Below the pieces are notes generated by a model that saw nothing but the letters and a program-made list of their open reading frames with translations, ran no database searches and was not told the DNA's origin. Shown here one piece after another: positions 7,506 through 60,295 of a stretch of DNA of 64,000 nt. Source of the stretch: a virus; IMG/VR virus record IMGVR_UViG_3300027708_000023; one strand, given 5' to 3'. A program made the translations under genes and the position numbers. Each line of letters opens with the position of its first letter. Position 1 is the stretch's first letter.

Positions 7506-7522
7506 TTTAAATAGGAATATTT

Positions 7523-32128: not shown

Positions 32129-32129
32129 T

Positions 32130-33083: not shown

Positions 33084-33185
33084 TTCCTTTTTTTTGGTGT
33101 AAAACAGAATAGTCAATTAGCGTCGTCACCAGACTAAAGAATTAAAAGAGTCCTTTTCAACCAACACGATATCGGAGATTCTAAA

Positions 33186-34208: not shown

Positions 34209-34248
34209 TAGACAATTATAATTATAGGGATATGGTTCGAGGACTAAA

Positions 34249-35440: not shown

Positions 35441-35441
35441 T

Positions 35442-36712: not shown

Positions 36713-39700
36713 ATGGCAGCATTTAATTTAACAGCACAACTAAATCTCAAGGGACCATCTAATATTGGATCAATAGTATCCAGTATTAAAAATCAACTTG
36801 GGAATATCAATACTACAGTTAAGTTTACTCTTGATCCTAATGCGGCCAAGAATGTATCACAGTTGGATGCCTCTTTAAAATCTCTTAATCAAACATTTAA
36901 AGACACCCAAGTATCAGCAACAGCGGCAGCAACGGCCGTATCCAAATTTACTTCAGCCATGAGCCAGGGTAATTCTGTTAGTCAATATAGTAATCAATTA
37001 AACCAAGCCAACCAAGCTGCTAAAAATCTATCTAGTACTCAAGCAGCGACATCTCAAGCAATACAAGAATCTTCTTCTAGTATGCAAGAGTTCGGCAAGC
37101 AAGCTGGTTTGGCGGTAAGAAGATTTGCTGCATTTAGCAGTGTTACAAGTGTTATTTATGGACTAGTTAGTGCTGTTGGTAAAGGAACATCAGAATTTAT
37201 CTCTTTTGATAAAGAGTTTGTTAAACTACAGCAAGTTACTGGAGAAAGTGCTGAAGGATTAAAATCTTTGGGCAGAGTAATTACTAGTTTATCTGCTGGT
37301 CTTGGAACATCATCAGCAGAGTTGGTGGATATTGCTTCTACATTAGCACAGGCAGGCTTGAGTGCTAGAGATACAGAAAAAGCCCTTAAAGCATTAGCAT
37401 TAAGTTCGCTAGCTCCATCTTTTGATAGCATGAATGAAACGGTCGAAGGATCTATTGCTTTGATGAGACAGTTTGATATTAGTGCTAGCGACCTGGAAAA
37501 AGCACTCGGCGCGGTCAACTCAGTAGCTGCTAAGTTTGCTGTAGAAGCCAGCGACATTATTACTGCCATTCAAAGAACCGGTGGTGTGTTTGCTACAGCA
37601 AGCAAAGGAGTTAGTGAAGGAACAGACGCTCTAAATGAATTTATTGCAGTATTTACTAGCGTACGAGCCACAACTCGTGAAAGCGCAGAAACTATTGCAA
37701 CAGGTTTAAGAACAATATTTACTAGAATTCAAAGAGAAAGTACTATTGATGCTCTTAAGGAATATGGAGTTAATCTACAAAATCTTGACGGTAAATTTGT
37801 TGGAGCTTATAAATCGGTAGAATTACTTTCTCAAGGACTATCAAGATTAGACCCTAGAGATGTTAAATTTTCCAAAATCATTGAAGAACTTGGTGGTTTC
37901 CGACAGATTGGCAAAGTTATCCCTTTGATCCAAGAATTCTCTACTGCACAACAAGCATTGTCGGTTGCTCAACAGGGACAAGGCTCGCTAGCCACAGATG
38001 CTGCCAAAGCACAACTATCATTAGCTAATCAAATTGCCAAAACAAGAGAAGAATTTTTAGCACTATTCAGAGATATAGGATCGTCTAATACTTTTCAAAC
38101 AATGGTTACTGGAGCTTTGCAGCTAACAAGCGCCTTAATCAAGGTTGTCGGGGCTGCTAAAGGCTTGCTACCAATGTTTACTGCCATTGCTGCTGTACAA
38201 GGAGCCAAAGCAATATCCCGATTTGCCGGAGGATTATATGAAGGACTATCTGGTGGAGGTAAAGATTCTTCAAAGAAAGGATTTGCTACCGGAGGTTTGG
38301 TTCCTGGAGTAGGAGATAGTGATAGTGTTCCGGCAATGCTTACTCCCGGAGAGTTTGTTGTTCGTAAAGCAGCCGTAAAAGCTATGGGCGTTAATAAATT
38401 ACATAGCATGAATAAATATGGTAGTGGTGGGAAAATAGAAACCTTTACAGTGGAGCAGTTGGCAAAAGCAGGTGGTCCCGAGACTATTTTTGAATTTGCT
38501 AAAAAGAAAAAAGACATAGAACTAGATGATAAAGTTACTGGTAAAATTAATAAAATAGAACCAAATCTTGGGCCAAAAGATTTTAAAGAAATTATTAGTA
38601 GATCTGAAGCTATTGCTAATGAGTCTGCTGGAGGAAAAAGCTCATATAGAGATTTAGAACTAACCCAAGAAAATAAACAAAATTATCTAGATGTTTATTT
38701 TGGTAAGGGTTCTAATAAAAGAAAATGGAATCCACAAGCAAGCCTATGGAAAAGCGCAGAAAAGAGGTGGGGATCAGCTTTTGAAGACTATATTGTAGCT
38801 CATTCAGACGATCAGTTAGAATCTGTTGCAGGAGGCAATTTCCCTATTGATGTTAGAAGAAAAAGAGGCAAAGCCCCCGCAGAAGTTAAATTTAGATCTG
38901 TTGAAGAAGAACCAGAGACTTTAATTAGTAAATTATTTAGATATAAGATCAAATCATCAGAACAAAAATTACTATCTCAATTTACAGAAGCAAGAAAAGA
39001 TAAAATAGATGATATTCAAGTAGGAAATATTGATTATTATCGTGCAGCAGAATCTAAACATAAATTTTATGAGTATTTATTTGATCATCCTGATGCTTAT
39101 CAGAAATTTGCAGATGGTGGCTGGGTTAAAAGAATGCAGCAGCAACCCATTAATAAACTTAAAGACGAACTAGGATTACTTGATTCTACATTGGAGTTAT
39201 TTGGTTTTCAAAGAAAGGTTCCAATTAGCACATTCAGTAAATCGGCCCCTTTCATGGAAGATGCTGGGAAAAAAGAAGTTAAAGAAAGAATAGACGCGAT
39301 CCAAAAGTTCCTAGCTGCTAAAGAACCACAAAAGGGAAAAGAAGTTGAGAAAGAAATAACTTTACCAAAAGCTCCATCTAACATTTCAGATCATCTTAAA
39401 TCGTTAATTGCAGAAAATAAAACATATGAAATAACAAGAGGAGTTTATGGGGGTGTTGTTAAACAAGCATTAAATGAAGCATATAGGGGAAATTTGGGTC
39501 CTGGTAATAAACAAGAAAATATAGATAAGGTTGGACCAAAAAGTATAGTTAGATACAATCCAGACAGAGAATACGTTGATGTTCCTTTGAGCGTGTTAGA
39601 AAATGATGTCAAATATATTGATAAAGTTAAAAGTTTAGAAGGTAGAGATGTTGAAAATCTAACTGCTAATAAAGGCTATAGCGTTAGTGATATGCTAGAT

Positions 39701-42700
39701 ACTATTAGAGCATATCAGGCAATAGGCTTAGACGGAGCTCTTAATCCCGCTTTGGGTAGAAAAGAAGATTTAAGTCAGTCATTAGCTGATGTAGCAGGTT
39801 TGAATAAGACAAAAAGAAAAAAACTTGGACCAGCAGTAGATCAGCCATTGTCTTATTTTGCTGGATCATTAGATGCTGCTATGCAATTTTCATTACCAGA
39901 AAAATTATATAGTGGTATAGGAGCTAGTAAGCAAAAACTATTTATAGAATCAGCTGGCGTAAAAATTAATAAACTAGAAGATACCAAAAAACTAGTTGGA
40001 AAAACTGTCAGTATACCTTCTTTCTTATCTACTTCAGAAGTGCCAGCCACAGCAGAAAGCTTTGCAAGAACAGGCATGATGACAATAGAAACAAACAAAA
40101 AAAGCAAAGGATTAAGTCCAGAAAGAGCTAAGACAGAAACAATTAACAGAGACAAATCAAAAACAAGAAAAATAGACCAGAGACTTATCTCTGATTCTTA
40201 CGGTAAGGGCAAAGCCGATGAAAATTATGCTGACGATTATGATATTGAATCAGAATATATTCTACCAAGAAATTCTCAATTTAAAGTAAAAAATATAGAG
40301 GCTAACGATAATAGTACAGAAGGTGGAAATCTTCTTGAATCGCTCAATATGGATTGGGCTGTAAAAATGTTAAGCCGTGGAGGGAAAGCACAAAAATTTG
40401 CAGACGGTGGAGTAGCTCAACGAAAAGTTGGATATATTGATTATGACGTTATTGCTAATCCTGATAATGAAGCCGTTGTCAAGAAGGGTATGGAAGCCAC
40501 CGGAATGACCGGTCCTAGACTGTATACTGATCATTTAACACAGCTAGCAATACAAGCAAGAAAAGAAAGTAGTCTAGATAAATTAAGAGCAATATATGGT
40601 GTTGCTGGTAGTGGTAAAACAACACTAGCAAGAGGCCAAGGAACAGATAGTGGAACTTTAAGACAAACTGAAAGATTCCCAATATTATCTCCAGAAGATA
40701 TTCAAAGAGCTACTGAGGTTTTAGTTTTAAGTAGTAGTGTTTCAAAAGATAAATTAGATAACGTTTTTGGAGAGACAGACAGAACATATACTTTAAGCTC
40801 TACTACTAAAGAGGAAAGAGAAGGAGTTAGATCTCGTAGAGTTGGAAGAGACATTAGTGGTATAGGTTTAGAAAATCGTAAACCTGGATCCACAACCAAT
40901 GTTGCAACAGATACCGCTGTCAGTGAAGCTTTATTATCAGACAGACTTGGTAATAGATCTACTGTTTTAGGTCGCTCTGAGAGTGGCAGATTACGCAGAA
41001 AACAGGGAGATGAACTGGTTGATGTGGTTAAAAAGAAAATAGGATTTACATGGGGAGGTTATTCTCCAATGACCGCTGGTCATGAAAGTATTCTGGATGC
41101 GGCAGCCGCAATGGGCATACCCCCAGAAGATTTCATTTATATGGTTGGATCCAACGAAGGAATAGTCCCTGGAAAAGAGCAATCCTATAGAACAGCAATA
41201 TTTGATCAAGATACTAGAGTTTTATTGGCAAAAGCTGGTGCTGGTGCTCGTGGAGCCACTGTGCTTCCAAAACCAAGAGACTTTGAAGTTCCTCAAGCTT
41301 TCGACCTCTCTGAACCAGGAGAACGCCGCAAAGTATTAGTACCAGCTAAAGGTAGCACAACATTTGTGGCTGATAAAGATCCAAAAGAAACAGAAAAATA
41401 TAAAACAGCTGGATATAAAGTTAAGAATATAGAGAGAACTGGTGGTATTAGTGGAACGATGGTTCGTGACCTTATAAAAGAAGGCAATCTTGGAGAATTA
41501 CAAAAGGTATTGAGTCCTGGAGTTTATGATCTAATTTCGAGAAATATAGGGAGAATTCAGAACAGAAGTAAAATACTTCCTTCAATCATAGAAGAAGTCA
41601 AACAAACACAAGGCGTTAAATTAGCTGATATAGAACAACAAATTAAAACTGTAGGTATTTCCAGAATAGATAATAAAAAAGCAGAAACCGATCCAGAATA
41701 TGCTGCAAAAGTTGAGGCCCTCAAGGAGTTAAGAGAAAAAAGAGATAATATCAAATCATCAGCATCATTTGAACCACACAAACTATTAGCCGCACTAGCT
41801 GTCAAACAACCAGAAAAATATGGTTTGGATTTGAGCACAACATTGGATGATGTTTCCGCTCCTATGCGTACGATGTCTTTCGGTGCAGTTCAAAGATTTT
41901 TGGATGGTGGTTGGGTACAACGAATGCAGTCTCAAAAGAAATCCACCCTCAAAGAAGATCTTAAATTTTTACAGTCTGCGATGGTATTTTCTGACGAAAC
42001 AGGCTCGTATGTCCCAACTTATGCTAAAGAAAATGAAAAAGAAGTTGTTGATGCTAAAGAAATGTTGGAACGATATAATGCGATGTCTCAGTTTATCACA
42101 GGCCCCCGTTCGGCTAAATCTGCTCTAAAACCAACAGGAGGATATAATTCTCAAGAATTATTAGATGCTGTTACCTATTATCAGGCTGGTTCTGGACCAC
42201 TCACAAGAGCTATGGTTAATAATGACTTTATTTTCACAGACAGAAATGAAGCTTACGATACTGAAGATTTAGTAGGAAGACTAAGCGCAGCTAGCCAATA
42301 TAAATTGCCCAAAAAACTATATAGTGGTTTGGGAAGAGGTCAATTTAATGAAATACTAAAAGATACAAATATTTCTCCAGACGATTTAATTGGTCAAACC
42401 TCCAAATCTATTGAGAGTATGATTGGCAAAACAGTTGACTTTCCAACTTTCTTATCTGCTTCTGTAAACCCAAACATGGCAGAAGGATTCGTTGGAGATC
42501 CCGGATCATTATTTTCTATAGATTCTAGTAAGTCTAAGTCTTTGGGAATAGATATATTGAAAGCCAAAGGAACATCTCCTACAGATGCATCTCCAACATC
42601 TCGTAGATTACCAGGATTAGATAAAATCAAACAGCATAAAATTGCTGGTTATGACCAAGAAAAAGAATTTGTATTACAACCCAATAGTCAATTTAAAATC

Positions 42701-45700
42701 TTAAAAGCTAGTGGGAATATATCAGAAGATCTTAAAGAAAAATTATCAGGAATTAAAAAGAAGAAAGAGCAAAAGTCCTTCGCTGCTAAATCAGATACCG
42801 GAGAAGAATTTACAGTTTATGAACCAGACTTTGAAGCTGGAATATCTGAAATTTTAAATGAAAAAAGCAGAATAAATATTCAGGCCCAAATGCTCTCATT
42901 AGGAGGTAAAGCTCAAAGATTTTCTGAGGGAGGAAGAACACTGAGTCCATTACTTCAGTCAATATATGATTCTATGAAAGATAAGCCAGAATGGCTAAAA
43001 GAGTTTGGACTCCCAGATAGTGTAACAACCGATGTCCCTGCAAAAACCATAGCCCAATTATATTCTGGAAAAAATTTTCCTACAGATCCATCTTTGGGTA
43101 TGTTTGCTGGCAAACCCATTAGCATAGATAATGTTAATGCCGTATGGAGAAAATCGTTTGCCTCATCAATGACTCCAGAAAAAACAGCAAACTATACCGC
43201 AGCTAAAAATTACTTAGCTCAAGAGCTAAAAGATGATACTACAGAACAAACAAAATTAACAATTAGAGATGTTAATAAGTCTACTAAATTAGGAATAGTA
43301 GGATTACAGCCAACAGATAAAAAAGAAATCCAGGGACCGATGAAACTTGGCGATAAAAATGTTACATTGTTTATTGCTGGATTATCTTCTGAATATGATA
43401 CAGCAGTAAAGAATATGAGACGTGGAGTTGAGGGAGTAGTTAATCAATTTGGTTCTGATATTCAAGACACAAAAATTTTCGGCTCTAGTGAAAAATATGC
43501 TTTTGATTTTGATGAAACTTTAGTTACTGGCGCTGATATTGTAGATGCTAATGGCAATCCAGACATTCCAAAATATAGTGATTTTGAAGCCGTTAGAGAA
43601 TCTATGAAAAATGCAGAACTAACTCAATTAGGCAAAAAACTCAAAAAATTAATAGCTCAAGATCCTTCTTTCCTTAAAAAATCTAGAATTTTAACTGCAA
43701 GACCACAAGAAACAGCTGGAATACTAGCTGAAACTTTACAAAGACTGGAACTACCATTCCAAGTATCTGATATTACTGGAGTATCCAAGCCAATAGGAGA
43801 AAGCAAATTAGATATAGCTGATGAAACAACTAAACGTATTAATAATACTACTATAGCAAAAGCTAAAGCTCAAGACGTTAAACAACTAGAAGCCCTAATT
43901 GACGATAATTTACAAAATGTTACCGAAACCAGAAAAGCTGGGAAAAAAGCATTTCACTATACAGAACTAAAGGATTTGACCCAAGAAGAAAAATCCGCTA
44001 GTGGATTTCCCAATATAGAAGGGGCAATCACACAATCTGTTATGACTGTGATGGGAGCTACTGGAGGATTGATCCAGAATGGAGCAGTAGATTACGAGAA
44101 CGGCCTAGGCCCTGCTGCTCAATATTTTCCTGGAATAGGTTCTGATTGGCCAACAGAAGTTAAGAGAACACTAGACTCTAATGCCATTTCTGATGCTAAA
44201 AAAGAATTTACAAGATACTATAAAGAGAATGGAAATAAAGGTATTCTTGCTCAAGCATTTGCTGATGGTGGACTTGCTGAAACTCCCCAAAAAGAAAAAG
44301 AATACGGTAAAATTAGTATCACTATGGCTACCGGAGGAAAAGTAAACAAGCACCTCGAACAATACAGACAAGTTTTGAGTAGCATACTACCTCCCGAGAT
44401 GCTTACCGAAGATGGTATGTTGAAAATGCCGTCGGGAGAAGGAAAAAGTATCCATATCACACCCCCTGTCCAGAAAACTCTTTTTCAAAAATTGGGTTTG
44501 GCATCTTATGACTCGGGTAAGGCTTATTACTCTGGTGGATTAGACTATAAATCATTAAGACATTTATTAAACAAAAGAAGATCAGAGCTTCCCCCAATAG
44601 AGGCAGAAGGTTTAGATAAATTCATTTCCCAAAATCTTGCATTTATAGGCAATGAAGACGAGATATCTTTAAGAGGAGCCAAGCACAAAGGAGTACTAGC
44701 TCACGAAACATTCCATGATATTCAAGGATTTTTATATGACAATCATCCAAAAATTATGGATAAACTAATATCATCAGTAGGCTCTGAAAAGGATAATATT
44801 GAGAGATGGTATAAAGATCCAACAAATAAAAAATTCACAGAAAAAGGGAATTATCAGTTTAAGCAACTATTTCCAGACTCGTCTAGTAATAGTCCTTATG
44901 GTACGGATCTGGGAGACTCAGCCAGATCAGCTGTAACTAAAGCAAAAAGGTTCAAAGGAGATAAGACGATATCGAGCGATCATCTCCTTTCTTTATTAAT
45001 AGACAATCAAAAACAATTAGGAGCAAATGAAACTGTTCCGGTTTTATTAGGTGCAGCATCAGAAGGAAATAAACAGGCTGCTGAAATTTTATCAAAAGTT
45101 TTTGAAAATGCTGGATTAAAACCAGATTTTATGGATACGCTACCCAAATTTGCTGCTGGAGGAATGGTTCCTGGTGTTGGAAATGGTGATACTGTACCAG
45201 CTATGCTTAATGTTGGAGATTTCGTTATAAGAAAGAGTAGCGTAAACTCTATTGGTCCAGATAAACTAGCATCTATGGCGGGATATGCTGCCGGAGGCTC
45301 GGTATCCGACAAGGTACCAGCCCTCTTGACTCCCGGAGAATTTGTCTTCTCCAAGACTGCTGCTCAAAAAATAGGATATCCTAAATTACACTCAATGAAT
45401 AAGGTAGGTAAATTTGCAAGTGGTGGAGCTGTTGGTTTACGAGTAGGTTATGCTGATGGTGGAGCAATTCAGGATCTTGGTAAGTTTTTATCTGTTGTAT
45501 CTTCGATGCTGAATAGTATTCCAACTAGAGCTATGAGTATCAGACCGAATACTATTGATAGCTCAACTACGAAAATAAACGATAGTAGTACTATAGATGC
45601 TTTAAGCTTATTAGGTAAAGCACTTGAGAATGTGGGAGTAAAAACATCAGAAACTGCGGCCCTAGTTAAGCGTGGTGGAGATATTAGTTACAAAGCAACC

Positions 45701-51700: not shown

Positions 51701-54700
51701 GAGGTCAAAAGATTTTTTGATCCGGACCTATTTAAAGGACCTCCAACACCAAATGGAAATCCGGCAGCTATTAAACAAGCCATAGACATGTTTCAATCAT
51801 TAGAAACTAATAATAAGTCATCATCTTTTAGTATTAATGATAAGAGTGCTGGGAGTAATCCATATTTTGCCGCCATGGATAAAGCAGCTTTAACTCCAGA
51901 TAAAAGAAACAGAGTATCTGAGGACCTAAAAGGATCTAAAATAGATAAGAGTAGCAATAATAAGGACACAATTGATCTACAAGAATTCAATCCTCTCGAT
52001 CTAGATAATGCATCATATAGAAATATATTTACATATGCTTTAAATCCGTATAATCAATATACAAATAGAGATATTCGAGCTAAGTTTTTTGATGAATTTA
52101 TTACCAGGATTCCAACAGCAACAAGAAGTAACGGGGCCCCATTATTTAGTGTAACTGAAGGTGCCAGATATGGTGGTGCTCTTAAATCTCTAAAGTCTTG
52201 GTTCGGAGGTAAGGGTAATGATGATGCTATGATACCAGTAAAAGCCAATAAAGACTGGGAAGGAATAGACTATCTGTATGATCAAACAGCCAACAAAACA
52301 GTTTCTTTTGGCGACAGACTAACAAGTCTCGATAATTCTTTAGCTCCTAATTTTTATGATGCAAACAAGTATGCGTTTGATTTTGTTGGTGGCACAGGCA
52401 TGTTCGGAGAACTACCAGATTTAAGCAACTATGAAAAAAGAAAAGTAGAATATAAAAATCAAGGAGGATTAATATACGCTAGCCAAGGTCAGCTTATTAA
52501 TTTTGAACCAAAGGGCACTGATACGATTCCTGCAATGTTAAGTCCTGGAGAATTTGTTGTTAATAGCGGAGCAACAGCACGAAACCTTCCCCTGCTAAAT
52601 TCTATTAATAAAAACAAGGGAGGAAAAATAGGATACTATAAAGATGGGGGTGTTGTAGATAATGAATCATTGTCACTATTAATGACACAAATGAAAATTA
52701 CTGAAAAACTATCTTCTTCTCAAAAAAGTATTTCTGATAGTAGTTCATCAGACTTAGCATCTCCATTACTCAGAATATCTAATGATAATGAAATTATCTC
52801 TATTGGCATATTACAAAGCATATTAAAAACTCTAGAAGATATTAAAGACTCTACACTAACTTGTTGCACAGGCAAAGATATTGGCAAGCCTCTTGATATA
52901 GCCACAACTTTACCATCACAGGTAAGGCCAGTTGCTCCTTTAGATATAAAACCGCCTGTTACAGCTGAGGAGGGCATTACTGAAGGATTCTCTCCACCAA
53001 TACCTCCTATTCCACTCCCGGATCTTCCAATACCAAATAAGCCAGATTTTGAGCCAATTCCGTTTCCAGAAGTTGAGCCTATTGTGCCAGAAATGCCCAC
53101 AATGCCGGAAATGCCTCTTCCTGATGTTAGAGAACCAATCTCAACTCCGGAAGACATACGACCAAAAACTATGCCACAAATGCCAGTTATGCCTCAGCCA
53201 GAGGTTGTATTACCAAAGAAACCAGCTTACACAGAACCATTTCCTGTTGAGAATTTTTCACCTAGTTTACTTCCAGGTTTTCCCAAAAACCCAACAGCCC
53301 CAACCTATGAGAACGGACCAACAGGAATCGATAGTCCATTTTTTGATCCAAATTCTTTACCCGATAGAAAAAAACCCCTCACTATCAGCAAAGTTGCGAA
53401 AGAAGCAGATATTACTCGCCAAGAAGCGATCACAGGCAGAGAAAAAACAGATCTCGATACTTCAAAATCAGAAGACATTATTAAAGAATCAGAAGCTCGC
53501 AGGGCTTATAATAGAGAAACACAAACAGCTCAATCTGCCCGCGCAGGAAATGTTCTATCTTCTGGTATTAGTCGAGCTAATGGAGCTATTACTGCAATTA
53601 AAGGTGCTCAAGAAATTAAAGAAGCAGGAACTTCCTATGATGCTTTTAGGGGTGGATTAAGTGTAGTCGATGGAATAGGAGACTTAGCAGGCGCTTCTGC
53701 TCCCCCATTAGCTGCTGCTGGTGACGCTGCTGGTTTAACTCGTAATAGTTTAGATTTCTATAATAATCCTGAGACTCGTTTACAAAGCGGTTTAGGTATT
53801 GCTAACGATGCAACTTCATTAACTCTAAGAGCTGCTCAAACAACCTCTCTTATGGCTCCAGCAGGAAGCTTGGCTAGTCAAATAGCAGCCCCTCTAGGAG
53901 CCGTAGGAGGCGTGGCAGAACTTGGCAGAGGCGCTGTTGCTGGTGCTTATGATACTAGTAACGAAGCAAAATTAAGAACAGCAGTAGAAAACATTATTAT
54001 AGGAGCAGCAACAGGAGATGCTACAACAGGAGGTTCTAGTTTAGCTGGTGCTGCTAATGCTTTTGGGGCAAATATTCAGCAGGGAGGTATGGTAGATACT
54101 CAATTAGCGGCAGGAGAATCATCGCTACGCTTAGCGGGTATCGGAGCAACTTTGGGTACTTTTGTTGCGCCGGGTCCCGGAACAGCTATTGGTGGAGCTG
54201 GTGGGGCAGTTGTGGGCGCAGGAGCAGAGCTATACAAATCTGGTTCCGCATACGCCAGAGAATCTGCACAAGCCCAACAGCTACAAGTTAGAACTGACCA
54301 GATGGTTAAGTCCAGCAAAACACAAGAGTATGTGACTGGATCAGACGGTACTGTCACAAAACAATCAAAAAATCCAGACAGCTTTAATTTTGGTTTAGAT
54401 GCTCAAGAATCAAGTCTGGTCAGATCCATAGCCACCCTCACTGCTCAAATTTCTTCTCTTAGACAGCTAGAAGAGAAAGGACAAATGCAGGTTGAAGAAA
54501 AACCAATACGCGATGCTATTGCAGAAAAAGAACAAACACTATATGCTCAAAGATCTGGATTAAAGGAGCTTGCAACACAAAAAACTAATGATGAAAATAC
54601 AACCTTTTTTAGACTTGGACCAGATAGTCCAATTGTCAAAGAGAAATTAGATAAATATCAGTCTTTGGTGGGCAGAGCCATAGAAGAACTAGGATCTAGT

Positions 54701-57700
54701 TTATCTGATAATATTAAACCAGAATCATTACCTCCTCTAGAGGTTGAGCCACAAACGAGTCTTATTGCTGCGAAACACAAAGCTATTGGTGGAGTTGTTT
54801 ATGCTAGTATGGGAGCATTATTTTCTCCCAAGGGTACAGACACTATTCCTGCTATGCTAAGTCCCGGAGAATTTGTAGTAAATAGCCAAGCAACACAAAA
54901 TAATTTACCATTACTACAGGCAATGAATAGTGGGAATAGTACTATTTATAGATCCACAGGATCAAAAAATCCCGAAGGTGGTATAAAATTTGGTCCTAAT
55001 AAGCCAATCCTTCAAGCTATTGATGAATTAGAACAGTCCGGACATTTAGAAGAAGCTACATTGAATAATATTTCAAAGTATTTTGGAGGTGGTGAGGCAC
55101 CCAAATCTAAAATAGTAGACTATAGTGGTGTCCTCAAAAATCGAGAATATAGACGAACACAAAAAGAGGCTAGAGAAGTTGGAAGCACTTCTCTTTTTAA
55201 TCCCCAGGGCTCCAACAGCTTTGTTTTTAGTCTTAGTGAAAGAAAGAAATACCCTAATGCTGGGCAGTATGTTAGAGAGCTTGGATATCCAAGGCACAAA
55301 AAGTGGGAAGATATTTTAAATAATGCACCAGGAACAAATATTACAGAAAAATTATCAACACTTGTTGATTCAGATCTTAATTATGTGGCTAGCTCGTATT
55401 TTAGCAGAGAGAGTGGTACTTATACAGAATTTTTGGATTATGTTATAGCAGCAGCTAAACAATTATCGATGGTTAAACAGAAAAAAGCAGAAAAGAAAAA
55501 ACACGAAGATTATGTTAGGGTTGTAGAAGAAGCCAATACTGGAAAACTAAGAAATTATGAGGCAGGAAATGTTAGGGGGATGGATCTACACTATAACATG
55601 CTTGGAATAGGTTCTAAAAATAGCGAAAAACAGATAGAACATCTAGATACTGAAATAAAAACCTTATTATTATCTGATATTAATCCAATAGACTTTAATA
55701 CTAGGGGTAAAGCTGAAAGAAATGATGCTGAGTCATTCTTTAAATATAGGGCTGATGCTCTCCAATCAACCGCGCCCACATATTCTAATATTTATAAAGA
55801 AGCAGCTTCTACAGAAGCAGATATTGATGATTGGTATACTGCTAGAATTTTACCACAACAGTCAAGAGACTGGACTTACACTGAAGGCAGAAAGTGGGTA
55901 GACTATTTAGGTATTCCAGAGAATAGAGATGAAGCTCTAGTTGGCGCTATTGGATTGATGACTAAAATTTTACCTGGAGTTTTAGGAGTAGCTGGGGCTG
56001 GACTAGGCTTTGTTTTAGGAGGCGGCCCCACCCCTATAGGTTTTGGTACTGCTGCTGTTGGTGGATTGGGTGGAACATTGGCAGGAGAAGGACTTAATTG
56101 GGCCATTGCACAAGGAATATCTGCGATATTGCCCGAAGATATGATGGAGTCTATAAAAGAAAAAATAAAGAAACATCCAGAAAACTATGAAGCTGGAAGA
56201 TGGGTCGGTTTTGGTGGTGAATTGCTTGGTGGAACATTATATGCGGAACCTATAGAAAGATTGGTACATAGAGGTGTTGGTCAATTTATGGCCAAAAGAG
56301 GTATGGCTGGCGCAGAGCATCACTTGACGCATAGTGTAGATATGCACGCTGTACAAGAAAATATGACAAAACAATTAGGGAAAAAAGCCTATGAAGCATC
56401 TACCAAAGAAGGACCTTATGCAGCTGTTGTTCGTTCTGAAAAGATAGCACCACCAACGACAAATGGATCTTTGGCTTTGGAAAGTCCTCTGGTGCCGGGA
56501 GCCAAGGGAACAACAAGATATCGCCCAGTTACTTCGGGGGGAAGCAGCATACCAGAGCAACTTGCCCTTTTTAAAGAGAATCTAAAAACCGCAATTAAAA
56601 AGTATGTTGATAATAGAGGAAAAGTGGAGATATTTGAAAATGGACAGCAAACTTTTCAATCCGTAACAGCTCAAAAAATGTTAGATGATTTTGGTATGGT
56701 CTTTTCTAAGGCTCCTTTATCGGTATTCGACGATAATAGTGCAAAGTTTTTACAAGAAGCATTGACATCCAAGCCCGAGCTTTATGCTAGCTTAAAAGAA
56801 GCAATAAATAATAGCCCAATAAGTGGATTCTCTTCTCAATTAGATAATGCATTATCTAATAAACCTAATACTCAATGGTCAGAAGCTTTGACGAAGATAA
56901 GAGAGGCTCTAGAGGAAAAAATTAAACTAAAAGGAATATTACCGCCGGAAGAAGCGGCCAGATCTGCAGAAACTAGTTTTCAAGAAATACTTACTCAGGC
57001 AGGAATCAGTTCTCCTCGATCTGCTGGCGCTTCTGTTAGTAATTTTGAATTACCCAACTTACCCGGTCAGACTTTAGGATTAGTAAGACAAGAGTATCTG
57101 AAGGATGCTGTAGTTAAAAAAACGTCTGAATTAGGTAGTCTTCGTATGACCCTGGCAAGAGCTATTCACACAATAGGAGAAAAGTGGAAAGAAGAAGGCT
57201 TAATAAGTTTTATGGAAAAACAGATGCACCACTATCTTGTGCCACACAAGCATGACCATGATCATGGTGATGAACATGGTGAGGCACATGGTGCCGAACA
57301 TGGTGGTGGACATGGTGCCGAACATGGTGGTGGACATGGTGCCGAACATGGAGATACTCATGGTGACGAACATAAAGCCGCTGGTCACTATAACGGAGGA
57401 TTAATCTATGCTTCTACTGGAAAGTATATTAATTTCCAACCCAAGGGAACAGATACTGTACCAGCCATGCTTACCCCTGGTGAATTTGTAATTAATGCCA
57501 GATCGACTGCTCAACACCTACCACTATTGAAAGCTATTAATAGTGGAGCTGATGTTTCTTCACCCGATACTATGAATAAAGGAGGTGTGGTATATTTGGT
57601 TGGAGGAGGAAGAGCCCCTTCAGGAGCAACCCCAGCTGGCAAACAAGCAATACCTGTACCATTAACAAGACAACAAAGAGTCAATAGAGTTAACGACATA

Positions 57701-60295
57701 GGAACACCATCTCGTATCAATAGTGCAAATCTTGATCCAGACACTGGAGAGATTAGATGGCCTGTGGTCCTCAGAGATCGTCCTTATACTATCCTTAGAG
57801 ATAGTCTACAAAAATCATTTAAGAGACTAGCAGAGAGTGGAACAACAGACTCTTATGAAGACTATAATAATACCCTAACTGACTTTAAAGAATTACGATA
57901 TCAGTTAAAAGAAAATGTTGATAAATATCGAGGGAAAGATGCAGGGAATTATGGAAAGTCTGTATCTTACTTACAAAGCCTAGAAAGAGAATACAGAATA
58001 GCTGCAGGCGATGGACCAACAGGAGATCAAAGAGACTGGAGAAAAAAGAAAAACCCGATACCAGTCGCTGGTGCTCCGGCCGGTGCTCCAGCTGGCGCTC
58101 CAGCCGGTGCTCCAGCTGGCGCTCCAGCACCACTCTCTCAAGATCCCAGAGAAAAAGCAGCACAAGAACTAGCAGAAAAAAATAATAGAATAGCAGCATC
58201 TGGAATGGCTCCCAGACTAGATGAAAAAGACATTAAACTAGATTGGACAGAAAAGAAGGATGGTTCCAAACAGTTCGAGCGAACAGCTAAAATTAATTGG
58301 CCTGTAGTTCTTAGGGACGGTGTCTTCTCCAGCGATAGAACTGCTATAGAAAAAGCAATGACTCGCCATGTTGGGTATGATGATTCTATTCAAGCCTTTA
58401 ATGAATTTAAGAGCAGATTAAAATCCAGAGTAGGAGAATATGACGCTGGAGATTATGGTAGATCTAGAACGTTCTTAGATAGTTTGCAAAGAGAATATGA
58501 CATGATGATAAAGAGTGGCACTTGGGATCTAGGAGGAAAAAAGAAACCAGATTGGAGAAAACCAAAAGAAAAACCAGCAGATCCCGCACAGGCCGCCCCA
58601 GATCCTGCTCAGGTACCAGATCCTAATGCTCCACTAGCAAATCCTTTTAATCGTAGAGAGCAAGCAAATGCACAGAGAGTAGAAAAAAATAACAGAATGG
58701 CCCAAACGTTTGCTCTTCCAAGAATCACCACAGATACAAATATGCCTGTCTCAATAGATACTGACACAGGAAGTATCAGGTGGCCATTGGAGCTAGGAAG
58801 ACAAAAATATAGTCAGCACACAGGAAATATCCAAGATCTATTTAAGAAAATGGTAAAAATTAGAAAGGATGCAGAAGATACCGGAGATAGACCAGTTGTC
58901 GATCATAGTATTTATCAAACAGGATTATCCGAATTCAAAGATTTAAAAGATTTATTGAAAGAGAATGTTCATGTTGTTGATAGTTCTAATTATGGAGAAT
59001 CTAGATCTTTCTTAGATAGCCTAGAACAAGAATTTATTATAGCAGCTAAGAATGGAGGAAATGTTGGAGGTGATAAAAAACCAGATTGGAGAAGATCAAA
59101 AACAACACCAGATAAACCCCCAGCAGGAGAAACACAAGAACAAAAAGCAAGAAGAGAAAAGAAAGAGAAAAATGATAGAGTCTCAGAGATGGGACAGTCA
59201 CCAAGGACCAACGACACTGTGCTCAACCCAGGGACCGGAGAGATCCAATGGACAATGGCTCTAACAGATTCTGAATATGCTCGAAACAGAAGCGCTATAC
59301 AAAAAGCTTTTGAAGATATGGTAAATAGTGGGGGTGGCGAAGATGTAGATTATGACACCTATCAAAATGTCAGTGGGCAATTTCAAGAATTTAAGAATTC
59401 CTTTAGAGCAAATCAAAGCAAATACTCCTCAAGTGACTATGGCGAATCACGCACATTTTTAGATAGCTTAGAAAGAGAATATGATGTAGCGGCTAATAAT
59501 GGTAGTAATATCGGTGTAGATGGTAGTAGTTGGAGAGAACCAAAAAATCTTGCTACAGGAGGATTAGTTTACAGCAATAATCAGGCTCTGCAAAATAGCA
59601 GTAATCACTATGCTTCTGGAGGTATAGTATATGCTAATAATGGAGCATTAATTGATGCCCAAGCTTCTGGTACTGATACTGTTCCGGCCATGTTAACACC
59701 CGGAGAATTTGTGGTCAATCGCAACTCTGCTCAGAAGTTCATGCCAGTTCTGAATGCTATTAATGGAGGAGCATATTCTGCGGGTGGGATTGTTAATTAC
59801 TTGGCTAATGGTGGCTTTGTGCAGCCTCACTACCTGTCTCGCGGTAATGAGAATCCTATTGGGGCTATGAGCCAGATATCTAACAGTAGCGGTGTATTAA
59901 ATAATAGTGTTGGCCAAAATATGGTTATGGCTAAACCAGCTTGGGTTGATGAGTTTATTGGTCAGGCACAGGAGATTTCAAAAGCCATAGGCAACGCATT
60001 AACGGACGTAACATCAAAGCTAAATAGTGTAGGATCCACCATGACAGAAAGCGCACAAAAACTAGCCAATACTTCTAAGGCAATATCCGAGACCAAGTTC
60101 CCAGACGAGATCGTACTAACACATAGCGGTCATATTATCACAGATATGCTACCAGAACGAGTTAATGATATTGTAAAAAGAAGTATTGATACGTCGGTAG
60201 CTATTAGCAATGATAATATAAACAACTCAATAGCTGGCGTGAACAAAAATTTGATGAAAAGCACTGAAGGAGCAATAGGAAGACAAACCGCTTAA
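36713..60295 (+). CDS. Giant modular tape measure protein (7860 aa) with embedded enzymatic cargo domains
   Basis: N-terminal TP901/PhageMin_Tail-like helical region (aa ~120-500); position after tube and chaperones; eight DTVPAMLTPGEFV-type modules; ART, kinase, NTase, HAD, HExxH and PD-(D/E)xK motifs. Confidence 0.9.
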   Translation: MAAFNLTAQLNLKGPSNIGSIVSSIKNQLGNINTTVKFTLDPNAAKNVSQLDASLKSLNQTFKDTQVSATAAATAVSKFTSAMSQGNSVSQYSNQLNQANQAAKNLSSTQAATSQAIQESSSSMQEFGKQAGLAVRRFAAFSSVTSVIYGLVSAVGKGTSEFISFDKEFVKLQQVTGESAEGLKSLGRVITSLSAGLGTSSAELVDIASTLAQAGLSARDTEKALKALALSSLAPSFDSMNETVEGSIALMRQFDISASDLEKALGAVNSVAAKFAVEASDIITAIQRTGGVFATASKGVSEGTDALNEFIAVFTSVRATTRESAETIATGLRTIFTRIQRESTIDALKEYGVNLQNLDGKFVGAYKSVELLSQGLSRLDPRDVKFSKIIEELGGFRQIGKVIPLIQEFSTAQQALSVAQQGQGSLATDAAKAQLSLANQIAKTREEFLALFRDIGSSNTFQTMVTGALQLTSALIKVVGAAKGLLPMFTAIAAVQGAKAISRFAGGLYEGLSGGGKDSSKKGFATGGLVPGVGDSDSVPAMLTPGEFVVRKAAVKAMGVNKLHSMNKYGSGGKIETFTVEQLAKAGGPETIFEFAKKKKDIELDDKVTGKINKIEPNLGPKDFKEIISRSEAIANESAGGKSSYRDLELTQENKQNYLDVYFGKGSNKRKWNPQASLWKSAEKRWGSAFEDYIVAHSDDQLESVAGGNFPIDVRRKRGKAPAEVKFRSVEEEPETLISKLFRYKIKSSEQKLLSQFTEARKDKIDDIQVGNIDYYRAAESKHKFYEYLFDHPDAYQKFADGGWVKRMQQQPINKLKDELGLLDSTLELFGFQRKVPISTFSKSAPFMEDAGKKEVKERIDAIQKFLAAKEPQKGKEVEKEITLPKAPSNISDHLKSLIAENKTYEITRGVYGGVVKQALNEAYRGNLGPGNKQENIDKVGPKSIVRYNPDREYVDVPLSVLENDVKYIDKVKSLEGRDVENLTANKGYSVSDMLDTIRAYQAIGLDGALNPALGRKEDLSQSLADVAGLNKTKRKKLGPAVDQPLSYFAGSLDAAMQFSLPEKLYSGIGASKQKLFIESAGVKINKLEDTKKLVGKTVSIPSFLSTSEVPATAESFARTGMMTIETNKKSKGLSPERAKTETINRDKSKTRKIDQRLISDSYGKGKADENYADDYDIESEYILPRNSQFKVKNIEANDNSTEGGNLLESLNMDWAVKMLSRGGKAQKFADGGVAQRKVGYIDYDVIANPDNEAVVKKGMEATGMTGPRLYTDHLTQLAIQARKESSLDKLRAIYGVAGSGKTTLARGQGTDSGTLRQTERFPILSPEDIQRATEVLVLSSSVSKDKLDNVFGETDRTYTLSSTTKEEREGVRSRRVGRDISGIGLENRKPGSTTNVATDTAVSEALLSDRLGNRSTVLGRSESGRLRRKQGDELVDVVKKKIGFTWGGYSPMTAGHESILDAAAAMGIPPEDFIYMVGSNEGIVPGKEQSYRTAIFDQDTRVLLAKAGAGARGATVLPKPRDFEVPQAFDLSEPGERRKVLVPAKGSTTFVADKDPKETEKYKTAGYKVKNIERTGGISGTMVRDLIKEGNLGELQKVLSPGVYDLISRNIGRIQNRSKILPSIIEEVKQTQGVKLADIEQQIKTVGISRIDNKKAETDPEYAAKVEALKELREKRDNIKSSASFEPHKLLAALAVKQPEKYGLDLSTTLDDVSAPMRTMSFGAVQRFLDGGWVQRMQSQKKSTLKEDLKFLQSAMVFSDETGSYVPTYAKENEKEVVDAKEMLERYNAMSQFITGPRSAKSALKPTGGYNSQELLDAVTYYQAGSGPLTRAMVNNDFIFTDRNEAYDTEDLVGRLSAASQYKLPKKLYSGLGRGQFNEILKDTNISPDDLIGQTSKSIESMIGKTVDFPTFLSASVNPNMAEGFVGDPGSLFSIDSSKSKSLGIDILKAKGTSPTDASPTSRRLPGLDKIKQHKIAGYDQEKEFVLQPNSQFKILKASGNISEDLKEKLSGIKKKKEQKSFAAKSDTGEEFTVYEPDFEAGISEILNEKSRINIQAQMLSLGGKAQRFSEGGRTLSPLLQSIYDSMKDKPEWLKEFGLPDSVTTDVPAKTIAQLYSGKNFPTDPSLGMFAGKPISIDNVNAVWRKSFASSMTPEKTANYTAAKNYLAQELKDDTTEQTKLTIRDVNKSTKLGIVGLQPTDKKEIQGPMKLGDKNVTLFIAGLSSEYDTAVKNMRRGVEGVVNQFGSDIQDTKIFGSSEKYAFDFDETLVTGADIVDANGNPDIPKYSDFEAVRESMKNAELTQLGKKLKKLIAQDPSFLKKSRILTARPQETAGILAETLQRLELPFQVSDITGVSKPIGESKLDIADETTKRINNTTIAKAKAQDVKQLEALIDDNLQNVTETRKAGKKAFHYTELKDLTQEEKSASGFPNIEGAITQSVMTVMGATGGLIQNGAVDYENGLGPAAQYFPGIGSDWPTEVKRTLDSNAISDAKKEFTRYYKENGNKGILAQAFADGGLAETPQKEKEYGKISITMATGGKVNKHLEQYRQVLSSILPPEMLTEDGMLKMPSGEGKSIHITPPVQKTLFQKLGLASYDSGKAYYSGGLDYKSLRHLLNKRRSELPPIEAEGLDKFISQNLAFIGNEDEISLRGAKHKGVLAHETFHDIQGFLYDNHPKIMDKLISSVGSEKDNIERWYKDPTNKKFTEKGNYQFKQLFPDSSSNSPYGTDLGDSARSAVTKAKRFKGDKTISSDHLLSLLIDNQKQLGANETVPVLLGAASEGNKQAAEILSKVFENAGLKPDFMDTLPKFAAGGMVPGVGNGDTVPAMLNVGDFVIRKSSVNSIGPDKLASMAGYAAGGSVSDKVPALLTPGEFVFSKTAAQKIGYPKLHSMNKVGKFASGGAVGLRVGYADGGAIQDLGKFLSVVSSMLNSIPTRAMSIRPNTIDSSTTKINDSSTIDALSLLGKALENVGVKTSETAALVKRGGDISYKATIDAMEADLERAKIAGLSSKQIIALEDVIKLTREKSTQAVANKQFLEKSFSNSDTGKKLGSGAAQQAILTKASELEPKIRENTEYSNRLSLMGSGLSSQQIAATAKSMTDTPESREKIKSKSIIAATEEVTGVDRKEFTKQHLEASDIQQYIAQSMLDRKTLTQMDRQVLADKMDELQRTKAFKQASFEEQKKMLDQIRAQAKQETSQRREVLDPIAKEKGLPGLKEGSIPQSLSGIFSSKAGLAGLGLLATAPGLIEAFGPSAKTSSSASFMGGLRGAGETASAGLTLAGQLPGAAGPILAATAIATLASAAIKARNAFIEFEKNLANRQLEVSLSNLQQLFAELAKDTKDIRIQNQISSEIQKGAGNVSRLEQIDSSFPKAFFANGLDALFASRDSRDKGTANGTQASSDRSKILEKFGTAAYYRSTGFGQANFGLNAIGADARADKNRKMYLEMMAPEEAQERAKRSSALSESSQAFILNKAKSGKTATEISKEPDYEVLARNIALANNAVQEQILAIERSNLVNKEAAKTSIIRQYAEEQLIKITRQAQQERAMELSERAGRQFSMSFDRMFANMNQSIMSTNNSLDIFSDRLDSSINAFGGQASIGKTNLDTINTLKTPNISSSASFASAASTGSSLFGTENKLVESILVLGRDLESSLMSTINKTIQTNPRASDTKISSDIENSINNLLGKSNLPPDLTAQLSKSIGIGITEIRRKEGEGTKDRKIDFAELLRAIPGLKDTVDALKTTNNSVIASLENYQTVLDKFTQKLEMSSEKLREAAERRFKADDIVIDSSIQLAKTFGSDINPALGNVLRNQRTSRMTGGVTDPNDLLVQINQLQSRSTNQRDNLNELKNRSIGQPGAINAIIDNEKALSRTNYQLNQTYTALKNLADSGDAASNALSAIQAAQQKQAGKVSLIEKLVGSAPDELDTFNRALVRLQRTAGGERLYQTADQRKEILSVLNDITPLMGSNQEAHNFKANTLENLLQTSGIGLNPQFQSIINSIRNPEADPAVKQATEEYKNAVQVQSEANRAIAELNTNISTKLVEDMSKALKDSITNTRVKFDEGQIKDIVAGIRSATTVVAPGAPVARASGGIIYSAAGSYVDFQPQGTDTVPAMLTPGEFVMSKPAVDRIGSGTLSRMNKGYSNGGQVSYYADGGYVSSLLQNKYVDRSTGEPLIRKTGTFSIDNGTQNYPNLSEEFTTGSLNTFKNLQILPSFGAGTASGQIDSSGKKNETHTIGYSDQPNLGYGVPPSATYLAWFFSQKEEKNRGAYKYTEPAGAGTPSIVPLGVFLSPGTTTKSILDEKPLIFDGPELEAKKKFEQYIEKLTEVNRLLPTKIEQKNDAYDISVGAANFNIPSPDSINNAIKEFPSVSTTGKPGEFSIKGMSKPVSGYVGLYSDRSSGLPTVDGLLGNLGAGHSEENLPDIVLQRLGKDIMGISPQTRGTSNTNGFTGAGKKSEYDYSVTPPKIVDYGLSKSFMDGWISGLGKKPQTIKLPGSDMSSLVSLRQKITGEKYINDLKNKKLTAKEAEYEAVIAKKLKRISDKTESSVDINNDYFDLKKLGSDSDSVNVFSISTGEWPPYVKMLQQSINNSKNKETLEKLSYYGKDPTKLPFDVWPEGDFTKLQQFGWMDSGLEFDKATAAQVTRKVEDRAKQANPDIIENSITGKIKLNDPQLELPYRLNYSQNNKPTWWDTKTNSKSGKPIVDGFDSLYLLNAGGETAGAKGSTDNILQLLNTGDKRLFATSNGLEKYIPDQLSEQINNDPKLLAYLKSAMANGYDSKETQTLERSNLDGLFKLKLNKNLLGLLTKADAPGGFGDQFKETGDIFSGDIQFFLRDYIVETAKKLSSDKKATQLTDSKKKFGNSRDTSKLVGFDEGQEFAGASLALVLGAEELFGSGGEFELPGILPQNWFKPMLPTQFNSIYDMPQGLIREGMGRLGSWLSDASGRVEKYITPEMAQRDPRQYDKIIRAQTYMRGALSAFSSFEKEATGEVKRFFDPDLFKGPPTPNGNPAAIKQAIDMFQSLETNNKSSSFSINDKSAGSNPYFAAMDKAALTPDKRNRVSEDLKGSKIDKSSNNKDTIDLQEFNPLDLDNASYRNIFTYALNPYNQYTNRDIRAKFFDEFITRIPTATRSNGAPLFSVTEGARYGGALKSLKSWFGGKGNDDAMIPVKANKDWEGIDYLYDQTANKTVSFGDRLTSLDNSLAPNFYDANKYAFDFVGGTGMFGELPDLSNYEKRKVEYKNQGGLIYASQGQLINFEPKGTDTIPAMLSPGEFVVNSGATARNLPLLNSINKNKGGKIGYYKDGGVVDNESLSLLMTQMKITEKLSSSQKSISDSSSSDLASPLLRISNDNEIISIGILQSILKTLEDIKDSTLTCCTGKDIGKPLDIATTLPSQVRPVAPLDIKPPVTAEEGITEGFSPPIPPIPLPDLPIPNKPDFEPIPFPEVEPIVPEMPTMPEMPLPDVREPISTPEDIRPKTMPQMPVMPQPEVVLPKKPAYTEPFPVENFSPSLLPGFPKNPTAPTYENGPTGIDSPFFDPNSLPDRKKPLTISKVAKEADITRQEAITGREKTDLDTSKSEDIIKESEARRAYNRETQTAQSARAGNVLSSGISRANGAITAIKGAQEIKEAGTSYDAFRGGLSVVDGIGDLAGASAPPLAAAGDAAGLTRNSLDFYNNPETRLQSGLGIANDATSLTLRAAQTTSLMAPAGSLASQIAAPLGAVGGVAELGRGAVAGAYDTSNEAKLRTAVENIIIGAATGDATTGGSSLAGAANAFGANIQQGGMVDTQLAAGESSLRLAGIGATLGTFVAPGPGTAIGGAGGAVVGAGAELYKSGSAYARESAQAQQLQVRTDQMVKSSKTQEYVTGSDGTVTKQSKNPDSFNFGLDAQESSLVRSIATLTAQISSLRQLEEKGQMQVEEKPIRDAIAEKEQTLYAQRSGLKELATQKTNDENTTFFRLGPDSPIVKEKLDKYQSLVGRAIEELGSSLSDNIKPESLPPLEVEPQTSLIAAKHKAIGGVVYASMGALFSPKGTDTIPAMLSPGEFVVNSQATQNNLPLLQAMNSGNSTIYRSTGSKNPEGGIKFGPNKPILQAIDELEQSGHLEEATLNNISKYFGGGEAPKSKIVDYSGVLKNREYRRTQKEAREVGSTSLFNPQGSNSFVFSLSERKKYPNAGQYVRELGYPRHKKWEDILNNAPGTNITEKLSTLVDSDLNYVASSYFSRESGTYTEFLDYVIAAAKQLSMVKQKKAEKKKHEDYVRVVEEANTGKLRNYEAGNVRGMDLHYNMLGIGSKNSEKQIEHLDTEIKTLLLSDINPIDFNTRGKAERNDAESFFKYRADALQSTAPTYSNIYKEAASTEADIDDWYTARILPQQSRDWTYTEGRKWVDYLGIPENRDEALVGAIGLMTKILPGVLGVAGAGLGFVLGGGPTPIGFGTAAVGGLGGTLAGEGLNWAIAQGISAILPEDMMESIKEKIKKHPENYEAGRWVGFGGELLGGTLYAEPIERLVHRGVGQFMAKRGMAGAEHHLTHSVDMHAVQENMTKQLGKKAYEASTKEGPYAAVVRSEKIAPPTTNGSLALESPLVPGAKGTTRYRPVTSGGSSIPEQLALFKENLKTAIKKYVDNRGKVEIFENGQQTFQSVTAQKMLDDFGMVFSKAPLSVFDDNSAKFLQEALTSKPELYASLKEAINNSPISGFSSQLDNALSNKPNTQWSEALTKIREALEEKIKLKGILPPEEAARSAETSFQEILTQAGISSPRSAGASVSNFELPNLPGQTLGLVRQEYLKDAVVKKTSELGSLRMTLARAIHTIGEKWKEEGLISFMEKQMHHYLVPHKHDHDHGDEHGEAHGAEHGGGHGAEHGGGHGAEHGDTHGDEHKAAGHYNGGLIYASTGKYINFQPKGTDTVPAMLTPGEFVINARSTAQHLPLLKAINSGADVSSPDTMNKGGVVYLVGGGRAPSGATPAGKQAIPVPLTRQQRVNRVNDIGTPSRINSANLDPDTGEIRWPVVLRDRPYTILRDSLQKSFKRLAESGTTDSYEDYNNTLTDFKELRYQLKENVDKYRGKDAGNYGKSVSYLQSLEREYRIAAGDGPTGDQRDWRKKKNPIPVAGAPAGAPAGAPAGAPAGAPAPLSQDPREKAAQELAEKNNRIAASGMAPRLDEKDIKLDWTEKKDGSKQFERTAKINWPVVLRDGVFSSDRTAIEKAMTRHVGYDDSIQAFNEFKSRLKSRVGEYDAGDYGRSRTFLDSLQREYDMMIKSGTWDLGGKKKPDWRKPKEKPADPAQAAPDPAQVPDPNAPLANPFNRREQANAQRVEKNNRMAQTFALPRITTDTNMPVSIDTDTGSIRWPLELGRQKYSQHTGNIQDLFKKMVKIRKDAEDTGDRPVVDHSIYQTGLSEFKDLKDLLKENVHVVDSSNYGESRSFLDSLEQEFIIAAKNGGNVGGDKKPDWRRSKTTPDKPPAGETQEQKARREKKEKNDRVSEMGQSPRTNDTVLNPGTGEIQWTMALTDSEYARNRSAIQKAFEDMVNSGGGEDVDYDTYQNVSGQFQEFKNSFRANQSKYSSSDYGESRTFLDSLEREYDVAANNGSNIGVDGSSWREPKNLATGGLVYSNNQALQNSSNHYASGGIVYANNGALIDAQASGTDTVPAMLTPGEFVVNRNSAQKFMPVLNAINGGAYSAGGIVNYLANGGFVQPHYLSRGNENPIGAMSQISNSSGVLNNSVGQNMVMAKPAWVDEFIGQAQEISKAIGNALTDVTSKLNSVGSTMTESAQKLANTSKAISETKFPDEIVLTHSGHIITDMLPERVNDIVKRSIDTSVAISNDNINNSIAGVNKNLMKSTEGAIGRQTA
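57245..57388 (+). repeat. His-rich tract with a 24-bp repeat (HGAEHGGG)
   Basis: HKHDHDHGDEHGEAHGAEHGGGHGAEHGGGHGAEHGDTHGDEH. Confidence 0.9.
57670..59540 (+). repeat. Four tandem copies of a ~120-aa domain inside the TMP
   Basis: Repeated R..R....TG(E/S)I.W..L...YG.S..(F/Y)L.SLE.E...WR, separated by Pro/Ala linkers such as (APAG)n. Confidence 0.85.

Follow-up and report, generated by a model that had tools for sequence, protein, structure and literature searches.

The 64,000-nucleotide (nt) viral DNA stretch analysed here (IMG/VR virus record IMGVR_UViG_3300027708_000023; hereafter, the window) encodes a giant tape measure protein (TMP) that carries eight copies of a module of ∼55–75 amino acids (aa). 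In a large class of giant TMPs, this module delimits exchangeable cassettes. As a peptide element, it is specific to TMPs and under strong selection, and it is inherited from the C-terminal region of lambda-type TMPs. TMPs with embedded enzymes are already known (TM4, T5, P23-45), and so are polyvalent proteins. In the literature searched, we found no description of the repeated junction module, of its link to cassette boundaries or of the size of its family, nor of a TMP built as a cassette chain of 7,860 aa, with a family of about a thousand members in ∼230-kb uncultured phages.

The host protein is a true TMP by its domains and by gene order. Its N-terminal ∼520 residues form a genuine TMP domain, with PhageMin_Tail at aa 193–394 (E = 6.2e-22) and several TMP PHROGs, and the genes for the large terminase, the portal, and virion and tail proteins lie upstream. 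The entire module array is contained in one unbroken open reading frame (ORF). Each module consists of a core between glycine-rich xAxGG edges. The strict core pattern, D(T/S/K)(V/I)PA(M/L)L(T/S/N)(P/V)G(E/D)FV, matches the protein eight times, and a profile hidden Markov model (HMM) derived from the copies yields eight envelopes with 53–115 bits apiece. A preliminary description of the window had listed eight modules of the type found in lambda gpH, two of them in tandem; all eight are confirmed, and the HMM envelopes lie within ∼50 nt of the earlier coordinates. The same description had each copy bracketed by (F/Y)AxGG-like motifs. This holds in part, as the N-side GG is invariant, while the strict form is present at some edges only and module 6 has no clear GG on its C-side. 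The ORF and the modules are as follows.

36713–60295 (+): tape measure polyprotein, single ORF of 7,860 aa, with PhageMin_Tail and TMP PHROGs
38270–38473 (+), aa 520–587: module 1, first-slot subtype (FATGG..DSVPAMLTPGEFV..YGSGG), 69 bits; core from aa 537, nt 38321
45137–45307 (+), aa 2809–2865: module 2, first in the tandem pair, 53 bits; core from aa 2826, nt 45188
45302–45469 (+), aa 2864–2919: module 3, second in the tandem pair, 62 bits; core from aa 2866, nt 45308
48980–49204 (+), aa 4090–4164: module 4, 115 bits; core from aa 4116, nt 49058
52442–52657 (+), aa 5244–5315: module 5, 107 bits; core from aa 5270, nt 52520; homology to the closest relative (P0013) stops at aa 5312
54767–54985 (+), aa 6019–6091: module 6, with a weak C-side GG edge, 80 bits; core from aa 6043, nt 54839
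57374–57616 (+), aa 6888–6968: module 7, 99 bits; core from aa 6914, nt 57452
59597–59821 (+), aa 7629–7703: module 8, final copy, 157 aa from the C-terminus, 107 bits; core from aa 7655, nt 59675

Over 535 modules, the GG edges are conserved at 96–100%, and the core is nearly as constant: D27 99%, P30 and A31 97%, L33 99%, G36 100%, E37 96%, F38 97%, V39 99%, L53 97% and N57 96%. The position after the GG (column 11) is V or I in 99% of the modules.

Lambda gpH carries one such module at residues ∼733–782, comprised of FATGG (733–737), GEFV (754–757) and YATGG (778–782); the single element that the preliminary description had mentioned is present in the gpH sequence. The likeness extends to the order of the parts, that is, xAxGG, a hairpin ending in GEFV, a helix (..IG...L..M.) and YAxGG, and to the location near the C-terminus of a TMP; in lambda, ZL19 and ityhuna, the module lies 60–70 aa from the C-terminus. 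A GEFV hairpin followed by a helix between xAxGG edges is found in the eight copies of the window, and the profile built from them recovers residues 750–786 of lambda gpH together with two internal sites of Douge gp16. On the other hand, the TMPs of lambda and Drexlerviridae have a single copy instead of eight, and the DTVPAML half of the core is missing in lambda-type copies. The model of the lambda C-terminal domain, TIGR01541 (tape_meas_lam_C), was matched only over model positions 241–305, with 14.7 bits against a curated cut-off of 104.75. Judging from these sequence matches, the module is the same element as a part of the lambda C-terminal domain, and not an equivalog of the whole domain.

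To see how widely the module occurs, we searched the eight-copy profile against 1.84 billion representative proteins. This yielded 20,146 matches at E ≤ 1e-3, 5,308 at E ≤ 1e-10, and 950 at E ≤ 1e-30. Since the best single copy scores ∼115 bits, matches of the last class must be multi-copy, and its proteins would hold at least two copies each. The best 150 matches are proteins of 935–7,872 aa with 3–10 copies each (hmmsearch). Roughly, there are a thousand related giant TMPs, in uncultured phages of ∼230 kb. In 285 cultured-phage records, each with one matching place, all annotated carriers are TMPs. Like the giants, the actinophage TMPs Douge gp16 (PDB 8zdo) and that of Gordonia phage GMA4 have internal modules, but only two per protein rather than eight, and in proteins of 1,700 aa rather than 7,860; we found no description of these modules in the literature and searches covered. 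In the GMA4 TMP (L090:2200–7479), the modules occupy aa 965–1028 and 1266–1317, and an SLT transglycosylase domain comes after them (aa 1598–1679), which makes this protein a minimal cultured case of modules ahead of enzymatic cargo.

The modules of the giant TMPs occupy regular places. The first one starts at a median of aa 515, the last one ends at a median of 145 aa from the C-terminus, and the gaps between modules have a median of 828 aa; 42 of the 635 gaps separate modules in tandem. We cut the proteins at the modules and clustered the resulting segments. Three of the clusters form a backbone, namely, the N-terminal domain (cluster 0; 125 proteins), a segment of ∼1,130 aa (cluster 1; 103 proteins), and a C-terminal tail of ∼134 aa (cluster 2; 73 proteins). 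These alternate with hypervariable slots, and 257 of the 335 segment clusters are singletons. In addition to the modules, the window protein contains six orphan motifs of the (aromatic)-A-x-G-G type that have no core. The backbone segments and the orphan motifs, with ends of high-scoring segment pairs (HSPs) to relatives, are located as follows.

36713–38269 (+): N-terminal TMP domain, conserved, backbone cluster 0; more than 120 IMG/VR relatives at 55–69% identity
45470–48979 (+): conserved backbone segment of ∼1,170 aa, cluster 1, common to 103 giants
59822–60292 (+): C-terminal tail, following module 8
39107–39121 (+), aa 799: orphan FADGG linker, boundary of a sub-cassette, by motif and HSP boundaries
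40397–40411 (+), aa 1229: orphan FADGG linker; HSP ends at 1221–1237
41897–41911 (+), aa 1729: orphan FLDGG linker; HSP ends at 1724–1749
42920–42934 (+), aa 2070: orphan FSEGG linker; HSP ends at 2046–2074
44258–44338 (+): orphan FADGG (aa 2516) and MATGG (aa 2538) around a 22-aa stub; HSP ends at 2523–2538

Cassette boundaries were also mapped independently of the segmentation, from the interior ends of HSPs of at least 200 aa between the whole proteins of more than 140 giant TMPs. Among 32,504 HSP ends, 50.9% are no more than 20 aa away from a module, compared to a mean of 12.6% (maximum 14.5%) in 200 circular-shift controls. For ends without collinear continuation, which mark loss of homology, the values are 51.9% versus 12.7% (maximum 14.3%). 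These counts are of protein pairs and hence non-independent, so that the size of the effect matters more than any p-value. The mapping of breakpoints among TMP homologues that had been proposed earlier therefore supports the module as a cassette boundary. The ends concentrate on the two edges of the module, mostly at its C-terminal side, whereas the core is avoided. Where linkage could be scored, modules were linked to the cassette upstream two times as frequently as to the one downstream (131 versus 66), and the dominance of the C-terminal edge fits modules travelling with the upstream cassette. Away from the modules, HSP ends show a three-fold enrichment at xAxGG motifs of the orphan kind (16.2% versus 5.4%). 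In the closest relative, P0013, homology to the window protein is lost at aa 610, 1221 and 5312; in other relatives, breaks occur at ∼1229, ∼1729, ∼2070 and ∼2520–2538, that is, at orphan motifs, and at ∼2813.

The modules are encoded in one ORF at all 82 loci, and no split-gene forms of the polyprotein were found among these loci, which means that the chain is covalently intact at synthesis. As for the cargo, we found a match to ADPrib_exo_Tox at its cut-off and a match related to cytidylyltransferases, and HExxH and HAD motifs are visible in the sequence. The cargo cassettes are, by sequence, ADP-ribosyltransferase-like, nucleotidyltransferase-like, HExxH-containing and others. The ADP-ribosyltransferase-like type is present as two paralogous cassettes, at 39107–40396 and 41897–42919, which start with F.DGGWV.RMQ and end with MLS.GGKAQ.F..GG; the first of them is missing in the closest relative, where homology resumes at aa 1221. 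A His-rich run, HDHDHGDEHGEAHGAEHGGGHGAEHGGGHGAEHGDTHGDEH, lies just before module 7 (57200–57380, aa ∼6850–6890) and probably binds metal within the TMP. Four diverged repeats of ∼150 aa (..WPVVLRD..YG.S..FL.SLEREY..) with Pro/Ala-rich linkers make up the slot that separates module 7 from module 8 (57620–59540, aa ∼6970–7610); in P0013, they are present at only 33–36% identity.

The modules are similar at the DNA level as well, and the preliminary description had read this as a possible crossover signal for cassette exchange. The 19-mer GATACTGTACCAGCnATGCT is indeed found at exactly 45188, 49058 and 57452, but the similarity is accounted for by codon bias and the invariant peptide. At pairwise sites with the same amino acid, the codon is shared in 145 of 352 cases, while 153.6 are expected from the codon usage of the gene. 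The longest exact words between non-overlapping copies within the gene are only 8–15 nt. Synonymous sites being saturated, the copies must be held together by selection on the peptide. The copies are not homogenized either: the nearest relative is in the same protein for only 22 of the 535 modules (4%), and the mean identity of modules is 0.552 within proteins compared to 0.536 for random pairs between proteins. Hence, there is no concerted evolution of the copies, and the codon counts together with the nearest-relative analysis rule out excess DNA conservation or gene conversion. A DNA-level crossover site could still be the main reason for the conservation of the module, as breakpoints cluster at modules, blastn similarity to 80 related loci is confined to the modules over the C-terminal two-thirds of the gene, and exact words shared with 178 modules of other phages, non-orthologous ones included, reach maxima of 18–31 nt. 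However, the medians of these words are 9–11 nt, a test for chimeric modules (the N-half linked with the upstream cassette and the C-half with the downstream one) gave no signal, and selection on the peptide makes any role in recombination a by-product. We consider this explanation highly improbable; the modules are islands of DNA similarity as a by-product of peptide conservation.

In structure prediction, the tandem arrangement fared better than one module. A single module was modelled poorly, with a mean predicted local distance difference test (pLDDT) of 58.9 and a predicted template modelling score (pTM) of 0.26, and had no Foldseek match. For the tandem pair of the window, AlphaFold2 with an alignment of 32 tandem pairs yielded pTM 0.53, with the cores at pLDDT 72–78 and the GG flanks below 50. 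In this model, each core is predicted to form a beta-hairpin (VPAML, the turn TPGE, FVV) and, after it, two short helices. Given that 43 of the 121 residues in the chain are disordered, a pTM of 0.53 suggests that the position of one core relative to the other is set. No structural relative of the tandem model was found; the best Foldseek E-value was 0.24 and the best VIA-align Z was 2.8, for a model of moderate confidence.

We favour, at a probability of roughly 50%, a reading of the module as the standard connector used at junctions in lambda-type TMPs, with a core that associates with other copies or with an assembly partner and with hinges that are permissive. The module would serve as a standard splice point, so that foreign domains ride within one TMP chain and are loaded into the tail. 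The core might bind other copies, either between the chains of a TMP oligomer or between tandem copies, or else a conserved assembly partner. The flexible, exposed (aromatic)-A/S-x-G-G hinges would be the junctions at which cassettes are gained, lost and exchanged, and post-assembly cleavage could happen there, as in lambda gpH. In this protein and its giant relatives, modules stand at fixed landmarks: directly after the N-terminal domain, ∼145 aa before the C-terminus, and between backbone and cargo. The self-association or docking of the core and any cleavage are what we infer. Several observations weigh against the connector. A core that is nearly identical across positions and across distant phages exceeds the needs of a homotypic clamp and hints at a conserved external partner or at intrinsic chemistry. 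The module is unresolved in cryogenic electron microscopy (cryo-EM) maps of lambda and Douge, in which only gpH residues ∼818–849 and gp16 residues 1658–1699, respectively, are seen, and thus does not form a rigid, symmetric node in the mature virion. What suggests self-association is a single AlphaFold2 prediction, of higher confidence than that of one module, from a shallow alignment (32 sequences). Finally, sub-cassettes within aa 588–2808 are split by bare xAxGG, which means that the core is dispensable at some boundaries.

The main rival to the connector is that the module is a protease-recognition unit: a phage or host protease acting in trans would cut the xAxGG hinges after assembly or after ejection and free the cargo, the core being its docking site. 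The preliminary description had stated that gpH is cleaved near its C-terminus, and this is documented; the cleavage sheds a C-terminal fragment of ∼14 kDa and falls within a few tens of residues of the module (PMC12617516). Orphan xAxGG motifs alone mark the borders of sub-cassettes, predicted disorder would make the GG flanks accessible, and the very high conservation of the core across phages would suit a common partner. Cargo acting in the cytoplasm, such as the ADP-ribosyltransferase-like cassettes, plausibly works better once freed. Against this, we found no peptidase family among the neighbours of the TMP gene, either in the window or in one syntenic relative. In particular, a GG peptidase of the JAB/gpK type was rejected as a candidate: Prok-JAB was detected in none of four complete relatives of 223–244 kb (controls were positive in 9 of 14) and in none of the window neighbours. 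The HExxH cassette is no universal processing enzyme either, as its region is present in only about 12 of 140 giants (∼9%). The cut in T5 pb2 follows R1127 and is not at a GG; the conserved hydrophobic residue following the GG would be unusual at P1′; and cleavage of tandem modules would release pointless peptides of ∼55 aa. The recognition unit thus appears possible but doubtful. An autoprotease was the other proposal in the preliminary description; the module would then cut its own flanking AxGG, possibly only when assembled in the tail lumen. The gpH cut is made deep in the assembled tail, where an external protease would have poor access, and Asp27, Glu37 and Asn57 are 96–99% conserved among giants. 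Still, none of the residues Ser, Cys, His, Thr and Asn is constant over the 535 modules, so that an invariant nucleophile is missing, and each of the three conserved residues is lost somewhere: Asp27 in the diverged 'VPALVSNGEAYV' subtype (..GGxVPALVSNGEAYV..) and in lambda, Glu37 by replacement with Ser in the 'LPVGSFIIR' subtype, and Asn57 by Met in lambda, the sole phage in the set with proven cleavage. An ordered core of ∼30 residues would be very small for an enzyme, and neither Pfam nor NCBIfam has a peptidase match or a dedicated model for the module. The core bears a superficial likeness to the nucleophile hairpin of LexA, UmuD and signal peptidases (S24/S26), but hhalign against a LexA/UmuD/cI/LepB alignment gave 0.56% probability, off the catalytic hairpin, and the position equivalent in spacing to the Ser of the Ser–Lys dyad is Asp. 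No peptidase fold was found. We regard self-cleavage as very unlikely.

One further alternative is that the module acts after ejection, binding a universal component of the host envelope (peptidoglycan or a membrane factor) and helping to thread the TMP with its cargo. Retention of the core from coliphages to actinophages and to uncultured jumbo phages would suit a slowly evolving target, and the predicted beta–alpha–alpha core is similar in size class to wall-binding modules. However, no LysM, SH3b or other wall-binding family was found in Pfam even at E ≤ 10, and no fold match was obtained, a negative that the moderate confidence of the model keeps from being decisive; we regard this role as unlikely. 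Taken more broadly, the module may be a processing signal of a tail-borne system of polyprotein delivery, with xAxGG cut, once the tail is assembled or the TMP ejected, by an unrecognized protease or by chemistry of the module that assembly triggers. We entertain this only tentatively. If true, such processing would free a customizable set of enzymes into the host and would explain the long-unexplained conversion of gpH to gpH*. The module lies in the part of gpH left blank by every cryo-EM map, next to a cleavage that has been unexplained for 40 years, and, once defined, it provides a mutable handle on that cleavage in a tractable phage. Moreover, it points to a natural grammar by which phage tails could be loaded with foreign proteins, and it may be used as a marker for spotting cargo cassettes in metagenomic TMPs.

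The giant TMPs share features with several known systems. Thermus phage P23-45 gp96 is a TMP of 5,002 aa with a fused virion RNA polymerase (PMC10770324). Similar to the connector reading of the window protein, it is a giant TMP that delivers a functional enzyme into the host with the tail contents (PMC10770324), but it has a single N-terminal cargo and no cassette system, and a profile search did not find the module in it (the best domain score was negative). Polyvalent proteins, which belong to phages and conjugative elements (Iyer et al., 2017; PMC5512222), also combine many effector-type domains in a single chain of great length encoded by a mobile element, and their domain content is mosaic. 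The window protein likewise has several effector-type domains in one phage polypeptide; with regard to a conserved embedded processing peptidase, the HExxH cassette would be the candidate, in a region common to only about 12 of 140 giants. Unlike them, the present scaffold is a TMP with a repeated junction module; the term "tape measure" is absent from PMC5512222. TM4 gp17 and T5 pb2 have wall hydrolase motifs embedded in the TMP, and proteolysis is documented for T5 and suspected for TM4. By contrast with the giants, each has one small cargo, and no repeated junction module has been described in them.

In many relatives of the window protein (L024, L032, L036, L040, L049, L053 and others; for instance, L040:16346–16726), a tandem is formed by two diverged subtypes in the order '..GGxVPALVSNGEAYVPP..AKRIGY..L..MNQAD..' and then '..GTSDSIP..LPVGSFIIR.KATKALG..GG'. 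Their losses are complementary, since Asp is missing from the first subtype and Glu from the second, which would fit a sub-functionalized pair.

Four contigs of relatives with this type of TMP (G001–G004; behind L024, L046, L053 and L038) are complete and terminally redundant, with lengths of 223–244 kb. The relatives form a jumbo-phage clade, of which no cultured member is present in the phage collection searched. From the analogy with lambda, T5 and Douge, the C-terminal tail of the TMP is presumably the end that binds the hub. Directly before the TMP gene, a run of ORFs at 30966–36628 (about 173, 222, 323, 340, 348 and 291 aa) is syntenic with L082:4241–9917. None of these ORFs has a match in Pfam or PHROG; presumably, the tail tube protein and chaperone of the clade are among them, with ORFs of ∼103 and ∼291 aa ahead of the TMP gene as chaperone candidates. 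A search with the 498-aa protein encoded downstream of the TMP gene returned no related loci. Near the packaging genes, the window carries a homologue of GlmS-like glutamine amidotransferases (phrog_13807, E = 2.4e-194) at 1169–2980 (−) and a nucleotide-sugar epimerase gene at 9871–10941 (+), which may be auxiliary genes of sugar metabolism.

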